This document shows, in pieces, positions 1 through 49,760 of a stretch of 53,111 nucleotides of DNA. How positions within the stretch are numbered: the stretch's first letter is position 1; the number at the start of each line of letters is the position of its first letter. The notes beneath the pieces were generated by a model. It worked only from the letters and a program-made list of their open reading frames with translations. It did not search any database and was not told the origin of the DNA. The position numbers were made by a program, and so were the translations under genes. Source of the DNA: a virus (Duplodnaviria; Caudoviricetes); the IMG/VR virus record IMGVR_UViG_3300025141_014934, positions 1 through 53,111 of that record, one strand, 5' to 3'.

Positions 1-3000
1 ATCTGTTTCCATGAAGGATATTGATAGGGACCGTTGCGGTGATGCATAAGCCCGTTGAACATCTTTTCTTTGCCTTTATATTTGTTCGACCATCCGTAAA
101 CTAGTCCACCTTGATATACTTGGTCAACAAGACCAGGAGGAATGGAAGCTGACCACTCATAGTCTAACGGATACCCAACAGTGTTGATACTAGAGCTTAC
201 CGGTTCATAAAGGTTGGTGTTCAAACCTACAAAATCATCCGGGATAAACTCAAAATACGCAGTTGAAGTTGGCAGTCCCCATGGAATACCATAGTAGCGT
301 ACGCTATCCCAGTAGTAAAGACCAGATCCTACGTCACTACTACTAAGGAATGTTATATCATCAGATGCTGTTGCGTACCCCAAAGCCTTGGAACTCTGCA
401 TCGATGAGGTGATCCATAGGTACTGTGAGTCAGACTGGGGGATAGCATGTTGAACGAACCAGTTGTCGTAGACTGCACTGCCAGGGAGAGCCTTTGTGAT
501 GCTACTTGCAGTCAAGCTACAAGGACCGATACCGGCTTGGTGTGAGGAGGCTGTTGCGGCGGTCAACCCGAAACTCCCGCTAGCTCCGTTAATTATAGCA
601 GTGGCAGAGTCGCCGGGAGTGTCTCCAAACCTATATACGGCTTTTACTGAACTTGATATTCCATGCGTTGAGTGGAACGAATCGCTGTAGTTCGTATAAG
701 GATCTGTTGGTCCCGGAGTATAAGCTGTATCTCCCACATAGCGATAGAACGGCGCGCTAAAGGCGGTACTAGTGCTATCGACAGAGGGAGTAACATATCC
801 AGTGAAGAAAGATAGCTGTGCAATTTCTCCTCGTAAGAAGTTGGCGTAGGCGAGGGTGGCATGCTGCTCGCCGCCGACGGTCAGTATATCAGTGGTACCC
901 ATAGCCATACCCATACGGATGGAGGCGCCCCACCAGACGCCGTCTAGATAACCATCGCCGACATATTTGCTGGTTCCTGCATTGTAATACGAACCAAAAG
1001 TGACGTGGTGCCACTCTCCATCATCCACGCGATTGGCACTAGTGTTAAAGTTTGCACTCGTTGACAATCCTTCATCGGTATCAATGGTCAAGATTCCACT
1101 CGTAGTTACTGTGAGACGGCAGCGAAGTGTGCCAGCGGTGGCGTTCCAAGAAAAAATGGTTTGACTGTACGCAGCCTGTATAGTCTTGAACCATACACTA
1201 AAGCTGACTGGGTGTGGCTCACTGGCGGTTTTGCCACCAAACCACTGAAGCTCTGCGGCTGTTGGGCCATTGAAATACTTACCTGTGTAAAGGTTTGTTA
1301 CGGGCGCGCCGAACACAGCACAGTGCTTATTCTCTGTGGCGTAGAAGCGGCCGGGGTAAGGGATTGTACTCCCCGTTGGCGCTTCTAGAGAAATACGGCC
1401 GGCCGAGGCGGTATTATACGGCACAGCGTAACTGCTGTTTCCACTGAAATCTCTAAGGGTGCGAGGTGCCTGACCTTCAACAAACTCAGAATCATCACCC
1501 ATTCGGTACCAAGCAACCAAACTACCAGAGGCAGGATGCAGTTGGAGATCTGTCGGTCCTGGGTTGTTGTTGTTCCCTGAGTCATAAAGACGCACGATGT
1601 CGCTGCCGGTTAACTCCGTGTTCCAGACTGCAACGTCGGATATCCACCCATTAAATCCGTTATCGAAGAATTTATTTTGGTTGCCGATCCCTATTTTGTC
1701 AGTGGAAGCAATAGAGGAGGAGAAACTTGTTAAAGCAGCGCTCGTATTTACAACCTTGCCGTTAATATACATGGTACCATAGGTAACGCCGCCGTCGCCG
1801 TTGTAACGACACGTGAGCCCAATGTTGTACCACTCACCCTCTGTAAGTACAGAAGAGTCAAAAGAGTCAGAAGAACCAGCATAGGAATCTGCCCGGACGG
1901 CGCCGGTGCTACGGATCCCCAGAGACATTTTTGCATTGTTACCCTGGCTGCCAAGAGCTACCACCACTCCCGTGCCGCTATCATGAGAGAACCCTACAGG
2001 AAACTTTACCCACGCAAACATTGAAAAAGAAGTATTAGTCAAGTTTAAGGTTGAAGCATCTTCTAGTGAAAGATACAGTTTGCAGTCACTGCTGTCGGTC
2101 TGACACGTGCCCTGAGGGAAATAGATTGAATAGTGATTCTCAAATCTCGCATCTTTCTCGTATCTTCGAGCCGTATTTCTGTTGGTCCCCTGATAGTTGC
2201 CGACTACATAATGCGGAAGATTGTCTAACTGCTGCGAGGAAGTTAGGCTGAACGCCTTTATTCCATACTGACCAGAGTGATCTTTAAGTAGTGAATTGAG
2301 TGGCTGCCTTACGCTTAAGTTTCTCCATGGCATTGCATTATATGGAGAGTACTCCTCGGAAGTGTAATCTCTTGTTCCTCTCGCCATCACTTCACCAGAG
2401 CCTGGGGCGCTGAATCTTTCAGTTATGACGGTTTGGTTTGTCGTCCTCTCCGGTAAGGAGTAGTCGACAACACCAGTTACGTATGAGGACTCGCTATTGG
2501 AAATTGACAGATTTTCAATGAACAAATTGTTGGCTTTTCTGCCGCTTGTTTGAACAACTTGGTAATTCTTTTCGAAGTTGCCGATCTTGGTTATACCGGA
2601 GCTTGTAACCTGTTGGATGTTGGCAATGTTAACGGGCCGCTTCGCGTACGTCTCTCTTGTTCTATTGGCGAATGGAAGATATTTATATGCGTTGTCAGCT
2701 TGAAATGTAGTGGGTGGGGCGGCGCCGCGGGTTGGACCTGAACTTACAGTCCCCAAAGTATTTGAGTTACCTGAAGAATCATATAGAAAGCTTTTTTCAT
2801 CAACGCCAAAGCGCCACCAGGCAGCCACATTATTGGGGAATTCCTCCATAACATTCCATGCCCCGGGTCCACCGAGTTTTGAAGCGCCGTAAAGAGATTC
2901 TACGGCATCAATAGTGCCCGTGCTGTACACTACAATCTCGCCAATATGACCCCTGTAGGGAGTGTTGGACGAGGCAGCCACGGTGTCTGCACCAATAGCG

Positions 3001-44147: not shown

Positions 44148-44435
44148 CTACGTCGGGGGGGGAGTTTCTTCGGTGGAGGTGTCTTCCTCGTTAGCTGTAG
44201 AATCCTCTAAGCCTTGGGCGTAGCCCCGCATCCAATTTTCCTCGGCCACAGTTAGAAGAAACTCAGGGAATTCCGATGCAAATGTGTTGATCGTCATCTC
44301 CAAAGTCACTTCTTCGTTTTCTGGATCCAGTTTATCTCCGACATAATTTACAACCAGTTCTTTCAAGCCTGTTGTTCCTATTATCTTTTCTTCTAATGCT
44401 GGGTTTGTTTCCAGTTCTTTTATTTCTTTTGTCAT
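44148..44435 (-). CDS. Hypothetical protein
   Basis: 95 aa acidic ORF coupled to phoH. Confidence 0.7.
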   Translation of the reverse strand: MTKEIKELETNPALEEKIIGTTGLKELVVNYVGDKLDPENEEVTLEMTINTFASEFPEFLLTVAEENWMRGYAQGLEDSTANEEDTSTEETPPPT

Positions 44436-45748
44436 AATACCTTCGATGCCAGTGTTGCTACTCGGGAACGCTCTCCCTTTTTGAGTGTAATATGACCAGA
44501 TAAATCGTGTGTTTTGAATTTTTCAATAGCATAGGTTAGACCATTTGAGGTCTCGTCTATGTATGCATTGTCAATCTGTTCCACGTCTCCGGTCAATATG
44601 ATTTTGGTTCCTTCACCGACTCTTGTAATTATAGTCTTTAATTCGTGACTTGTTAAGTTTTGTGCCTCATCTATTACAATATAAGCATTCGCAATTGAGC
44701 GGCCGCGGATATAGGTTAGTGCTTCGATTTCGATGAGCCCCTTATCAACGTACATATCCAACACATCTTTGTCATTTCCCATCAAGTATTTTAAATTGTC
44801 CTCGATAGGAGCTAACCATGGAGTCATTTTCTCTTCTAGTGTCCCTGGAAGGTATCCGATGTCTTTCCCGAGTGGCTGAACAGGGCGGGATACTACCAGG
44901 CGACTGTATCTTTTTTGTTCTAACACTTGTTCTAACCCAGAAGCGATCGCCATTAGCGTTTTACCACAACCAGCCTTGCCAACTAGAGTTACAATGGGGA
45001 TATCCGGATTCATCAATAGATCGAGCCCAAACGACTGCTCTTTGTTGCGAGGACGGACACCCCATACACCGTCCTTACTGAATTGGGTTACCTTTTGCAG
45101 AGGTGTTGCATGATCTGCGAATCTTGCCAACGCTGTTTTTTTAGAATTTGCACTCGAAACCAACATGATAAACTGGTTAGGGTTTAGGCTGAACTCATCT
45201 TTATCTATGATAACCGGTTCGCTACTGTAATAACGGTCTACCAACTGATCATCTACCAAGAGGTTAGAAAATCCGTCATATAGCTCATCGATATGATCAA
45301 CAATCTGGTTGTCTACGTAATCCTCGCACAATATCCCTAGGGCATCACACTTTACGCGCATGTTTATGTCTCTAGAAACTAGAACCACCTTTTTGCGAGG
45401 AGAGGTTTCCATTTCTTTGAGAGCAACGCCTATGATCTCGTTATCGGCGTTTCCGGTGGGGAAGTCTGTTGGGAGGGTCGATGCGCCGTCGTAAGGGACC
45501 GCCCTAGCATTCCCAAGGCTCTTTCCTATACGCACCCCTTTACGTAAGCTTCCGGCGCTTCTAAGCTCATCTAGAGCCCTAATCGTGCGTCGAGCGTTTG
45601 TGCCCACACCATCTTGACGCTTCTTGTGCTTGTCAATTTCCTCCAACACCTTGAGTGGGATAACAATATCGTTGTTTCCGTAGCATTTTATTGAATTGGA
45701 GTCCGTCAAGTAGACGTTTGTATCTAGAATATATGTCTTCTTTGCCAC
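44432..45748 (-). CDS. phoH: PIN-domain PhoH-family ATPase
   Basis: PIN motif ILDTNV; Walker A GKAGCGKT; GYLPG, RGRS, DEAQN, GD..Q.D. Confidence 0.92.
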   Translation of the reverse strand: MAKKTYILDTNVYLTDSNSIKCYGNNDIVIPLKVLEEIDKHKKRQDGVGTNARRTIRALDELRSAGSLRKGVRIGKSLGNARAVPYDGASTLPTDFPTGNADNEIIGVALKEMETSPRKKVVLVSRDINMRVKCDALGILCEDYVDNQIVDHIDELYDGFSNLLVDDQLVDRYYSSEPVIIDKDEFSLNPNQFIMLVSSANSKKTALARFADHATPLQKVTQFSKDGVWGVRPRNKEQSFGLDLLMNPDIPIVTLVGKAGCGKTLMAIASGLEQVLEQKRYSRLVVSRPVQPLGKDIGYLPGTLEEKMTPWLAPIEDNLKYLMGNDKDVLDMYVDKGLIEIEALTYIRGRSIANAYIVIDEAQNLTSHELKTIITRVGEGTKIILTGDVEQIDNAYIDETSNGLTYAIEKFKTHDLSGHITLKKGERSRVATLASKVL

Positions 45749-48492: not shown

Positions 48493-48572
48493 TGGTGGGC
48501 GATCTGGGGCTTGAACCCAGGTGTGACCTGCTACTCTTTCTACGGTTTATAAGACCGAGGAGATAATCGCCC
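48493..48572 (-). tRNA. Atypical tRNA-Ile(UAU)-like RNA lacking a canonical D-arm
   Basis: GGGCGAT/ATCGCCC acceptor stem plus ACCA; T-arm CTGGG-TTCAAGC-CCCAG; anticodon hairpin CGGT-CTTATAA-ACCG; only 8 nt between acceptor and anticodon stems. Confidence 0.75.
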
Positions 48573-48580
48573 ATGTTCTT

Positions 48581-48609
48581 AATATACCAGATTAAAAACC
48601 AAATGTCAA
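48581..48609 (-). promoter_or_regulatory. Sigma70-type promoter
   Basis: TTGACA-17 nt-TATATT with TG extended -10, ending 8 nt before the tRNA-like RNA. Confidence 0.8.
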
Positions 48610-49634: not shown

Positions 49635-49718
49635 TGGTAGGGAAGGCGGGATTTGAACCCGCAAGCCCGGGGGCGGGAGATTTTAAGTCTCCTGTGTATG
49701 CCATTCCACCACTTCCCC
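49635..49718 (-). tRNA. tRNA-Leu (anticodon TAA)
   Basis: GGGGAAG/CTTCCCT acceptor, D-loop GGAATGGCATAC, GGAGA-CTTAAAA-TCTCC anticodon arm, long variable arm, GCGGG-TTCAAAT-CCCGC, encoded CCA. Confidence 0.95.
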
Positions 49719-49731
49719 AAATCATAGTAAT

Positions 49732-49760
49732 ATAATACACGGTTTGAGGAACGGTGTCAA
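49732..49760 (-). promoter_or_regulatory. Sigma70-type promoter
   Basis: TTGACA-17 nt-TATTAT just upstream of tRNA-Leu. Confidence 0.8.

Follow-up and report, generated by a model that had tools for sequence, protein, structure and literature searches.

The stretch of phage DNA analysed here (53,111 nucleotides (nt); IMG/VR virus record IMGVR_UViG_3300025141_014934, completeness estimate 30%; hereafter, the window) carries a small RNA gene that begins and ends like a transfer RNA (tRNA), and the question that it raises is how an RNA with no D hairpin in the usual place might nevertheless be built as one. The gene occupies window 48572..48493 on the minus strand and is 80 nt long, consisting of a 77-nt RNA that we interpret as a core-permuted tRNA-Ile(UAU) followed by an encoded CCA; in what follows G1 is window 48572, and positions 1 to 77 denote the RNA without CCA. 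The original prediction, which was made from the letters alone, had described an acceptor stem, U8 A9, a 4-base-pair (bp) stem with the loop CUUAUAA, a T arm, an A and CCA, and had proposed that the RNA is an arm-swapped tRNA. The reverse complement of 48493-48572 reads exactly so. The results presented below support the arm swap, which appears to be a novel route to a functional tRNA.

In canonical tRNA, the segments follow one another in the order acceptor strand, 8-9, 10-21 (D-stem 5′ strand and D-loop), 22-45 (D-stem 3′ strand, residue 26, anticodon arm and 44-45), 46-48 and T arm. We read the element as one in which the blocks 10-21 and 22-45 are transposed, which is to say that the D/anticodon domain would be circularly permuted inside an unchanged acceptor/T minihelix. 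By this assignment, U8 and A9 would be residues 8 and 9, U10 C11 N12 C13 would take the place of 22-25, C14 that of 26, 15-31 that of 27-43, and N32 G33 approximately that of 44 and 45. A34-A36 would constitute an added connector, after which G37 N38 G39 U40 would represent 10-13 (with G37 as G10), A41 R42 would represent A14 R15, G45 G46 would represent G18 G19, and Y52 would represent Y48; the equivalents of C50 and A51 are uncertain (46/47 or 21). Every universal tRNA core residue can be assigned in this manner, in another order. No D hairpin lies between A9 and the anticodon stem, which are separated by 5 nt; the partners of 11-13 lie beyond the anticodon arm, and the two D-stem strands are 24 nt apart and enclose that arm.

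A family of at least 209 copies, of which at least 143 are distinct, was assembled by scanning viral contigs for motifs, by scanning genomes and by BLAST searches of isolated phages. The viral contigs were scanned with three motifs that were anchored differently, namely, on the connector and GGUC, on the linker and T-loop, and on the 5′ part up to GAAA; each scan yielded at least 116 to 118 loci, and every position of the RNA was left free in at least one of the three patterns. Individual copies were delimited by a script, which searched for the core motif and selected the T arm and acceptor according to their pairing. Most of the 143 distinct copies are 77 nt long (123), the others being 76 (12), 75 (4) or 78 nt (4), and CCA is encoded in 20 of the 209 copies. 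Of the 221 matches to the core motif, 2 lay at the edge of a locus, and 11 distinct matches were discarded, 8 of these being plainly unrelated. The remaining three (in loci L136, L015 and L349) are family-like: their anticodon stems and 11-13/37-39 helices are intact, and they failed the acceptor or T-loop filter. Among the 221 matches, none that is family-like has a broken 11-13/37-39 helix. The alignment used below contains 142 distinct sequences, the three family-like matches and one divergent copy (L145, 257-333, plus strand) having been left out. The divergent copy adjoins a normal member. Its anticodon stem has 5 bp, position 37 in the loop numbering is G, and its linker is altered and lacks the customary GGU context; this copy is perhaps in decay, or is perhaps a relative that is built differently.

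BLAST with a 301-nt stretch identified a single phage record, in which the matching sequence is an unannotated stretch inside the tRNA cluster of bajarodcaudo virus 1, while three short family queries against GenBank phages gave 80, 48 and 43 records. The 80 records are those of 77 Streptomyces phages, Kehishuvirus tikkala (a crAss-like phage of Bacteroides cellulosilyticus), one "uncultured" phage and bajarodcaudo virus 1, and the other two queries added the uncultured phage cr130_1 and one Microbacterium phage record. The Streptomyces carriers belong to a group of phages of about 131 kb with 43-48 tRNAs (PMC5764925). Among 60 matches listed with the annotation at the site, 58 have none and 2, both records of phage EGole, have tRNA-Leu. 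When one genome per prokaryotic species was scanned with the linker and T-loop motif, 9 of the 120 matches listed were true members, all of them from metagenome-assembled genomes or uncultured assemblies. Seven lie within tRNA arrays of 2 to 20 genes, and one (L170) has no other tRNA in its locus; the locus L218 holds 20 tRNAs within about 5 kb, with no canonical tRNA-Ile among them. A covariance model of the family (R1) gave 90-96 bits for members and 24.8 bits for the best other match in five whole records, and it found one copy each in three complete phage genomes. The family is large and strongly conserved, and it is almost never annotated.

In the 142 aligned sequences, 96.8% of the cells of the acceptor stem are paired, and all 7 pairs change on both sides; the corresponding figure for the T stem is 98.0%, again with compensatory changes. 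The anticodon stem (16-19/27-30) covaries at all four pairs. A 5-bp anticodon stem was rejected because 15:31 is a conserved Y·U mismatch that forms a standard pair in 0/142, and the arm, with a 7-nt loop and standard U33 and A37, has four covarying pairs as against the canonical five. The anticodon hairpin is enclosed by a further helix. Pair 11:39 is CG in 139 sequences and AU in 3; 12:38 is CG in 64, UA in 44, GC in 29, AU in 3 and UG in 2, so that all four Watson-Crick types are represented and no sequence is unpaired; and 13:37 is CG in 113, GC in 27, UA in 1 and otherwise in 1. The adjoining 10:40 is U·U in 141 of the 142 and A-U in 1. The original prediction had extended the anticodon helix by pairing TCTCCT with AGAAAGA; a helix enclosing the hairpin does covary, but that register was wrong, and it is replaced by C11-U12-C13 with G37-A38-G39, in which G39 is the first base of what had been taken as the next segment. 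We also dropped a pairing of C14 with G33 and U15 with A32 in which U31 is bulged. C14, G33 and nearly all U15 are invariant, and the sequences with C15 (L029 and L057) keep A32, which gives C·A and speaks against a U15-A32 pair.

The segment between the enclosing helix and the T stem behaves in the alignment like a D-loop. Position 42, directly after A41, and position 52, directly before the T stem, are A-U in 99 sequences, G-C in 35, G-U in 2 and otherwise in 6, which resembles the Levitt pair R15-Y48; between the window and its closest relative, a phage contig (L079), G42/C52 is replaced by A42/U52. The A..GG motif that had been likened to that of the D-loop is invariant (A41, G45 and G46 in 142/142), also in sequences from the pattern that leaves the segment free, and G45 G46 is likewise invariant among those from the motif that leaves the whole 3′ part free. 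The length of the linker varies only between R42 and GG and just after GGU. Length variation around GG is the behaviour of the α and β regions of real D-loops. The full set of invariant residues comprises U8, A9, C14, C20, A23, U24, G33 A34 A35 A36, U40 and A41 within 1-41, and G45 G46 U47, C50 A51, G57, U58 U59 C60, A62, C65 and A77 within 45-77. U21, in the place of U33, is present in 141/142, and G57-C65 takes the place of canonical G53-C61. The GAAA of the connector is invariant in 142/142, including the sequences found by the pattern that leaves GAAA free.

The overall covariation score of the named pairs was 0.778, as compared with 0.183 in shuffles that ignore relatedness (0/500 as high), and it was 0.09-0.18 when the partners were slid by 1-3 columns. 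Mutual information with average-product correction, to which no structure was given, placed all the named pairs in the top 18 column pairs with the exception of 11:39, which is hardly variable and ranked 36. RNAalifold on the 142 sequences returned the same four helices (acceptor, T stem, anticodon stem and 11-13/37-39). A structure-only descriptor, which specified the pairing, U8, U33, GG and the UUCRA loop and neither a family motif nor an anticodon, gave 117 distinct hits in the fetched loci, which total about 3 Mb, and 0 hits in the shuffled loci. All of these hits are family members, and all have NAU anticodons. Given 143 distinct homologues with the layout and 117 descriptor hits as opposed to none in shuffled sequence, the feature is far beyond chance.

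The transposition was also undone in silico. In each of the 142 sequences the block was moved back, in three variants, and the products were submitted to ARAGORN, which called 142/142 at default and 104-115/142 at 110% stringency. The native sequences gave 0/142 at default, 0 at 85% and 0/142 at 110%, and sequences in which the block had been moved the wrong way gave 0/142 at default and at 110%. When the D block was internally shuffled, 75/142 were called at default, which indicates that the program is lenient on D arms, and 2/142 at 110%. The calls on the un-swapped sequences were Ile-tat in 109 cases, Ile-gat in 18 and Met-cat in 14, with one shifted. The arm swap is, then, supported by the covarying enclosing helix, by 42:52, by the length variation on the flanks of GG and by the un-swapping of 142/142 sequences. 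The comparison of homologues that had been proposed as a check found the layout kept, the extended helix covarying, the GG conserved and the anticodon varying in its wobble position.

As had been predicted, ARAGORN missed the permuted element when run on the region of the window, where it called tRNA-Leu alone. The Rfam model RF00005 reported the window copy with 32.0 bits, above the cut-off of 29. In its alignment, 15 D-arm model positions are set against 4 nt, an 18-nt insert stands in the variable region before the T arm, and the first anticodon-stem pair is flagged as non-standard. The original prediction had held that a match to a described Rfam family would count against it; because the model skips the D arm, we do not regard this marginal match as a refutation. 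When RF00005 was applied to 16 member loci, 7 copies were at or above the cut-off (29.5-32.8 bits), 2 fell short of it (28.4 and 23.1) and 7 were absent from the output at E up to 10; for the canonical tRNAs of these loci, the scores were 31-73 bits. In three other loci, ARAGORN calls with wrong, over-long boundaries (87-97 nt) overlap family members (L312, 1328-1414; L337, 2325-2418; L339, 2771-2867). One of these calls is labelled tRNA-Leu(caa), which shows a route to mis-annotation, as in phage EGole.

If the RNA is a tRNA, then the question is which amino acid it carries. Among the 73 distinct sequences found with patterns that leave the anticodon free, the anticodon is TAT in 57, GAT in 8 and CAT in 8, with no other represented. 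As far as primary structure can tell, the family has the features of tRNA-Ile isoacceptors, these being the anticodons GAU, CAU (lysidine type) and UAU together with an invariant A73 (here A77). A fixed A35 U36, a variable wobble position and an invariant A73 are what would be expected, because selection for reading the isoleucine codon box produces such a pattern. In their genomic setting, the permuted genes resemble members of tRNA sets. Other tRNAs are present in 181 of 203 loci, and a same-strand tRNA lies within 300 nt in 128 of the 203. A canonical tRNA-Ile is also present in 39 loci, where the permuted and canonical anticodons are, respectively, UAU and GAU (16 loci), CAU and GAU (9) or GAU and UAU (8). 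In 3 loci the only anticodon is the same in both forms (2 UAU, 1 GAU), and in 3 more, with mixed sets, one anticodon recurs. Permuted UAU and permuted GAU genes occur together in 6 loci, one of the GAU copies being the divergent copy in L145. Phage Jay2Jay has a permuted GAU gene and an annotated canonical tRNA-Ile(tat) (NC_029098.1, 77444-77518), and Kehishuvirus tikkala has a permuted GAU gene, in the gap between tRNA-Trp and tRNA-Met, and a canonical UAU gene. In the window, ATA accounts for 260 of 874 isoleucine codons in open reading frames (ORFs) of at least 150 amino acids, which may include spurious ones, and TTA is frequent, at 17.4 per 1000 codons. The frequent ATA and TTA match the two tRNAs of the fragment, Ile(UAU) and Leu(UAA).

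One interpretation of how a tRNA fold could be reached by this chain is that the D stem forms around the anticodon hairpin, which would give one long interrupted helix in which the stacked layers from the anticodon to the elbow stay at about ten. The old ends of the domain (45 and 10) would be joined by GAAA, and new ends would be opened at 21|22, a site that, in the textbook structure on which our layer-by-layer assignment is also modelled, adjoins residues 9 and 48. The relocated GG would dock on the T-loop to generate the L-shape. An L-shape predicts the covariation of 42:52, the D-loop-like length variation and the outcome of the un-swapping. As a conjecture, the order might have arisen by internal tandem duplication of 10-48 followed by the loss of both outer parts. 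With its untouched acceptor/T minihelix, the RNA would be accepted as an ordinary elongator tRNA by RNase P, the CCA enzyme, isoleucyl-tRNA synthetase (IleRS), EF-Tu and the ribosome. We consider it probable that the gene in the window encodes a working phage tRNA-Ile (UAU, reading AUA) on a rearranged chain. With somewhat less assurance, we favour the broader view that it belongs to a natural and widespread class of tRNA with a permuted D/anticodon domain, which would carry isoleucine and serve standard bacterial ribosomes and for which the cloverleaf order would be dispensable, and that phages may keep the rewired core to escape a host enzyme acting on tRNA-Ile. The upkeep of the gene by phages might reflect escape from such a host factor, or a neutral, frozen rearrangement. 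Among the options raised in the original prediction (a decoder of alternative architecture, a tRNA resistant to anticodon nuclease or a decoy), the decoder fits best, given that the anticodons are of the isoleucine type only, vary in the wobble position and mostly complement the canonical tRNA-Ile; the other two options are neither favoured nor dismissed by the data.

Several points weigh against these conclusions. The argument concerning the three-dimensional fold is one that we infer, and A9, R49 and A51 can be matched with canonical 9, 21 and 46-47 in more than one way. The anticodon stem has four pairs and a conserved Y·U, 10:40 is a conserved U·U, and the GAAA is invariant without demonstrable reason, while its GAA could pair with the UUC of the T-loop in a different fold. 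In the minimum-energy fold of the window RNA taken singly, the full T arm is not formed, and a local hairpin (43-47/51-55) appears; the proposed model is obtained from the comparative fold only. What we take to be the minor identity pairs of E. coli IleRS are not conserved in the family; A-U accounts for 90/142 at the pair that stands for 29-41. For the members with CAU, it cannot be told from the sequence whether they are Ile2 or Met. No other isotype in the permuted layout was found in the fetched loci, all of which were ascertained through family motifs, and "isoleucine only" is limited to those loci. The leniency of ARAGORN on D arms and the disregard of relatedness in the shuffles belong on the same side.

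One could envision that the RNA is instead a mimic of tRNA-Ile that does not decode. It would draw off, as a decoy or sponge, a host factor that recognises tRNA-Ile (an anticodon nuclease, a modification enzyme or IleRS), or would act as a regulator shaped like a tRNA, and its odd core would bar translation or resist cleavage. Phage tRNAs have been proposed to counter tRNA-targeting defences (PMC10264068), a canonical tRNA-Ile is co-carried in the 39 loci described above, and the fold, with its short anticodon stem, its Y·U and a GAAA of unexplained role, departs from that of every standard tRNA. However, a decoy for a single factor should keep one anticodon, whereas here the wobble base is U, G or C and A35 U36 is fixed; the anticodon usually complements that of the canonical tRNA-Ile in the same cluster and does not duplicate it; some dense arrays, such as that of L218, have no other tRNA-Ile; and the conservation of A73, of the acceptor/T minihelix and of all the elbow residues would be superfluous in a decoy for an anticodon-loop nuclease. 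We think that a mimic is, for these reasons, unlikely. An RNA that is structured but not L-shaped, held by other contacts (GAA with the UUC of the T-loop, or the local hairpin) and with a function unrelated to tRNA, seems to us improbable. The hairpin in the minimum-energy fold of the window copy speaks for it, and, since GAA is complementary to UUC and neither varies, covariation cannot decide on that pairing; yet the hairpin is not predicted by RNAalifold on the 142 sequences, the covariation of 42:52, the length variation around GG and the un-swapping all fit an L-shape, and the element lies among tRNA genes, on the same strand and with tRNA-like spacing.

Two further explanations would make the permuted order a transient or a relic. 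Some phages encode RNA ligases, and the transcript could be a precursor whose blocks are cleaved apart and ligated anew, as RNA, to yield a canonical tRNA. The permuted tRNA genes of the red alga Cyanidioschyzon merolae do mature into normal tRNAs (PMC3728597). In the present gene, on the other hand, the acceptor strands are already in normal order, and canonical order would require two internal cuts and two ligations; flanking processing signals are not conserved, although no search was made for bulge-helix-bulge motifs; and the permutation most likely persists in the mature RNA because the covarying helices are those of the unprocessed chain. We regard such a precursor as very improbable. 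The failure of ARAGORN to call the window copy and an Rfam score barely above the cut-off could suggest a decaying pseudogene that has lost its D arm. The original prediction had held that the gene does not look decayed, and the 143 distinct homologues that share its layout, with compensatory changes in every helix, bear this out; the carriers, moreover, range from Streptomyces phages to crAss-like phages, and the promoter is kept in the relative L079 despite diverged flanks. In our view the pseudogene is already refuted, and its probability is close to nil. The working tRNA-Ile on a permuted chain, thus, is the reading that we retain.

With canonical tRNA-Ile, such as those of Jay2Jay (tat) and Kehishuvirus tikkala, the permuted RNA shares the 7-bp acceptor stem, A73, the 5-bp T stem with its UUCRA loop, the 7-nt anticodon loop with U33, A37 and NAU anticodons, the overall length, the presence in the same clusters and the equivalents of U8, A14, R15, G18 G19 and Y48. 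It differs in having no D hairpin at 9-26, a D-loop placed after the anticodon arm, four pairs and a fixed mismatch in the anticodon stem, and the extra GAAA. The D-armless tRNAs of mitochondria (mammalian tRNA-Ser(AGY) and those of nematodes) likewise have no D hairpin in the usual place and are functional adaptors. They have a short, flexible connector in place of the D arm and a less rigid shape (PMC7609411), and they need adapted partner proteins (PMC12221289). Unlike them, the permuted RNA keeps, in a relocated position, a D-type stem (the covarying 11-13/37-39), a loop with an invariant GG and a pair of the 15-48 type, and its hosts are ordinary bacteria with standard machinery; it does not belong to the mitochondrial class. 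The permuted genes of C. merolae also have a segment order that differs from the cloverleaf, but in them the 3′ half is encoded ahead of the 5′ half, and the mature tRNA that results from processing is normal (PMC3728597). In the RNA described here, the 5′ strand of the acceptor is at the 5′ end of the gene and the 3′ strand at its 3′ end, and the internal D/anticodon domain alone is permuted, which places it outside the C. merolae type. The tRNA-like structures of plant RNA viruses, that of turnip yellow mosaic virus included, likewise reach a tRNA-like shape and an elbow of the D-loop/T-loop type by a different connectivity of the chain. These 3′-end structures, for example the histidine-accepting one (PMC8127992), are cis elements of RNA genomes with a pseudoknotted acceptor and no decoding role, whereas the permuted RNA is a free-standing gene of a DNA phage with a standard acceptor and an anticodon loop of the decoding type. 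Finally, the allo-tRNAs and (8/4) tRNAs are non-canonical, were mined from metagenomes and are, in some instances, found in phage tRNA clusters (PMC5389517). They change the split of the 12-bp acceptor/T branch (8/4 or 9/3) with the arms in normal order; the permuted RNA has a 7/5 branch, and it is the order of the core that is changed.

To our knowledge, the order in which the arms of the cloverleaf follow one another is regarded as universal except in animal mitochondria. According to a 2024 abstract, every known bacterial tRNA is canonical (PMC11551756), and the word "phage" does not occur in a 2020 review of non-canonical tRNAs (PMC7609411). We found no description of the permuted layout in full-text literature, including passages of PMC7609411, PMC13092985, PMC5389517 and PMC5377504; subscription journals and supplements were outside this search, and a prior report is, therefore, possible. 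If our reading is true, then a tRNA can function without having its arms in the cloverleaf order. A family that keeps every residue of the tertiary contacts on a chain threaded in another way would constitute a natural experiment on geometry versus history in tRNA, as well as a ready scaffold for orthogonal or engineered tRNAs. Because annotation systematically misses the permuted genes, phage tRNA repertoires, and arguments about codon usage that are based on them, lack an isoleucine tRNA. The presence of the gene in cultured phages of Streptomyces and Bacteroides opens the question to direct testing.

Table 1. Coordinates of the permuted tRNA gene, its parts and neighbouring features in the window (parts are numbered from G1; canonical equivalents are proposed assignments).
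Feature	Window position	Strand	Remarks
σ70-type promoter	48581..48609	-	TTGACA, 17-nt spacer, TG before -10, TATATT
Acceptor stem, 5′ strand	48566..48572	-	positions 1-7; GGGCGAU pairs with AUCGCCC, perfect 7 bp
U8 A9	48564..48565	-	invariant in 142/142; also in 73/73 among sequences from patterns leaving both free
Positions 10-13 (U C U C)	48560..48563	-	in the putative place of the canonical D-stem 3′ strand (22-25); partner 37-39
C14 and anticodon arm 15-31	48542..48559	-	C14 in the putative place of canonical 26; stem 16-19/27-30, 4 bp
Anticodon UAU	48549-48551	-	stem CGGU/ACCG, loop CUUAUAA
Connector N32 G33 A34 A35 A36	48537..48541	-	would link the end of the anticodon stem with the putative counterpart of canonical 10-13
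Positions 37-40 (G A G U)	48533..48536	-	putative equivalent of the canonical D-stem 5′ strand (10-13)
D-loop-like linker 41-52	48521..48532	-	A41 (as A14), G42 (as R15), C43 A44, G45 G46 (as G18 G19)
Linker, 3′ part	within 48521..48532	-	U47 C48 A49, C50 A51, C52 (as Y48)
T arm 53-69	48504..48520	-	5-bp stem CUGGG/CCCAG, loop UUCAAGC
Acceptor 3′ strand 70-76 and discriminator A77	48496..48503	-	A77 invariant in 142/142
Encoded CCA	48493-48495	-	window copy
Canonical tRNA-Leu(UAA)	49635-49718	-	57.3 bits
Promoter of tRNA-Leu(UAA)	49732-49760	-	TTGACA-17-TATTAT, 11/12 matches
PhoH-like gene	44432-45748	-	PHROG 2765, E 2.7e-115

The σ70 promoter that had been attributed to the permuted gene is real as a motif, with 11 of 12 consensus matches and the TG, and it ends 8 nt upstream of G1. 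A scan of the surrounding 1.8 kb for the promoter motif gave one further 11/12 site, just upstream of tRNA-Leu(UAA). Comparison of the window with the related contig L079 showed that both promoter hexamers are kept and that the flanks have diverged. Of 11 neighbouring ORFs tested, 2 matched PHROGs, one being PhoH-like and one protease-like, and because only these two have matches the phage is left unclassified.

A number of minor observations were made in the loci of other carriers. In Jay2Jay (L369, 2960-3481, plus strand), the permuted gene lies directly after an annotated nucleotidyltransferase gene and before an FtsK/SpoIIIE-like gene, and in phage Coruscant an FtsK-like annotation overlaps the RNA gene. 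Directly downstream of the canonical tRNA-Ile(tat) of Jay2Jay there is a sub-threshold match (L369, 5791-5909, plus strand; 39.8 bits, cut-off 69) to YrlA, a Y RNA-like RNA. The locus of bajarodcaudo virus 1 (L001) has a weak, 55-nt match to the tRNA model at 2878-2932 (plus strand; 22.7 bits), which resembles the 5′ part of the annotated tRNA-His of Kehishuvirus (L370, 3154-3227) and seems to be without a T arm. A viral locus with a CAU family member (L328) contains a group I intron match at 981-1183 (minus strand; 65.3 bits, cut-off 50), and in L028 a phage transfer-messenger RNA gene (1455-1816, minus strand; 57.9 bits) adjoins the family member at 1844-1920.

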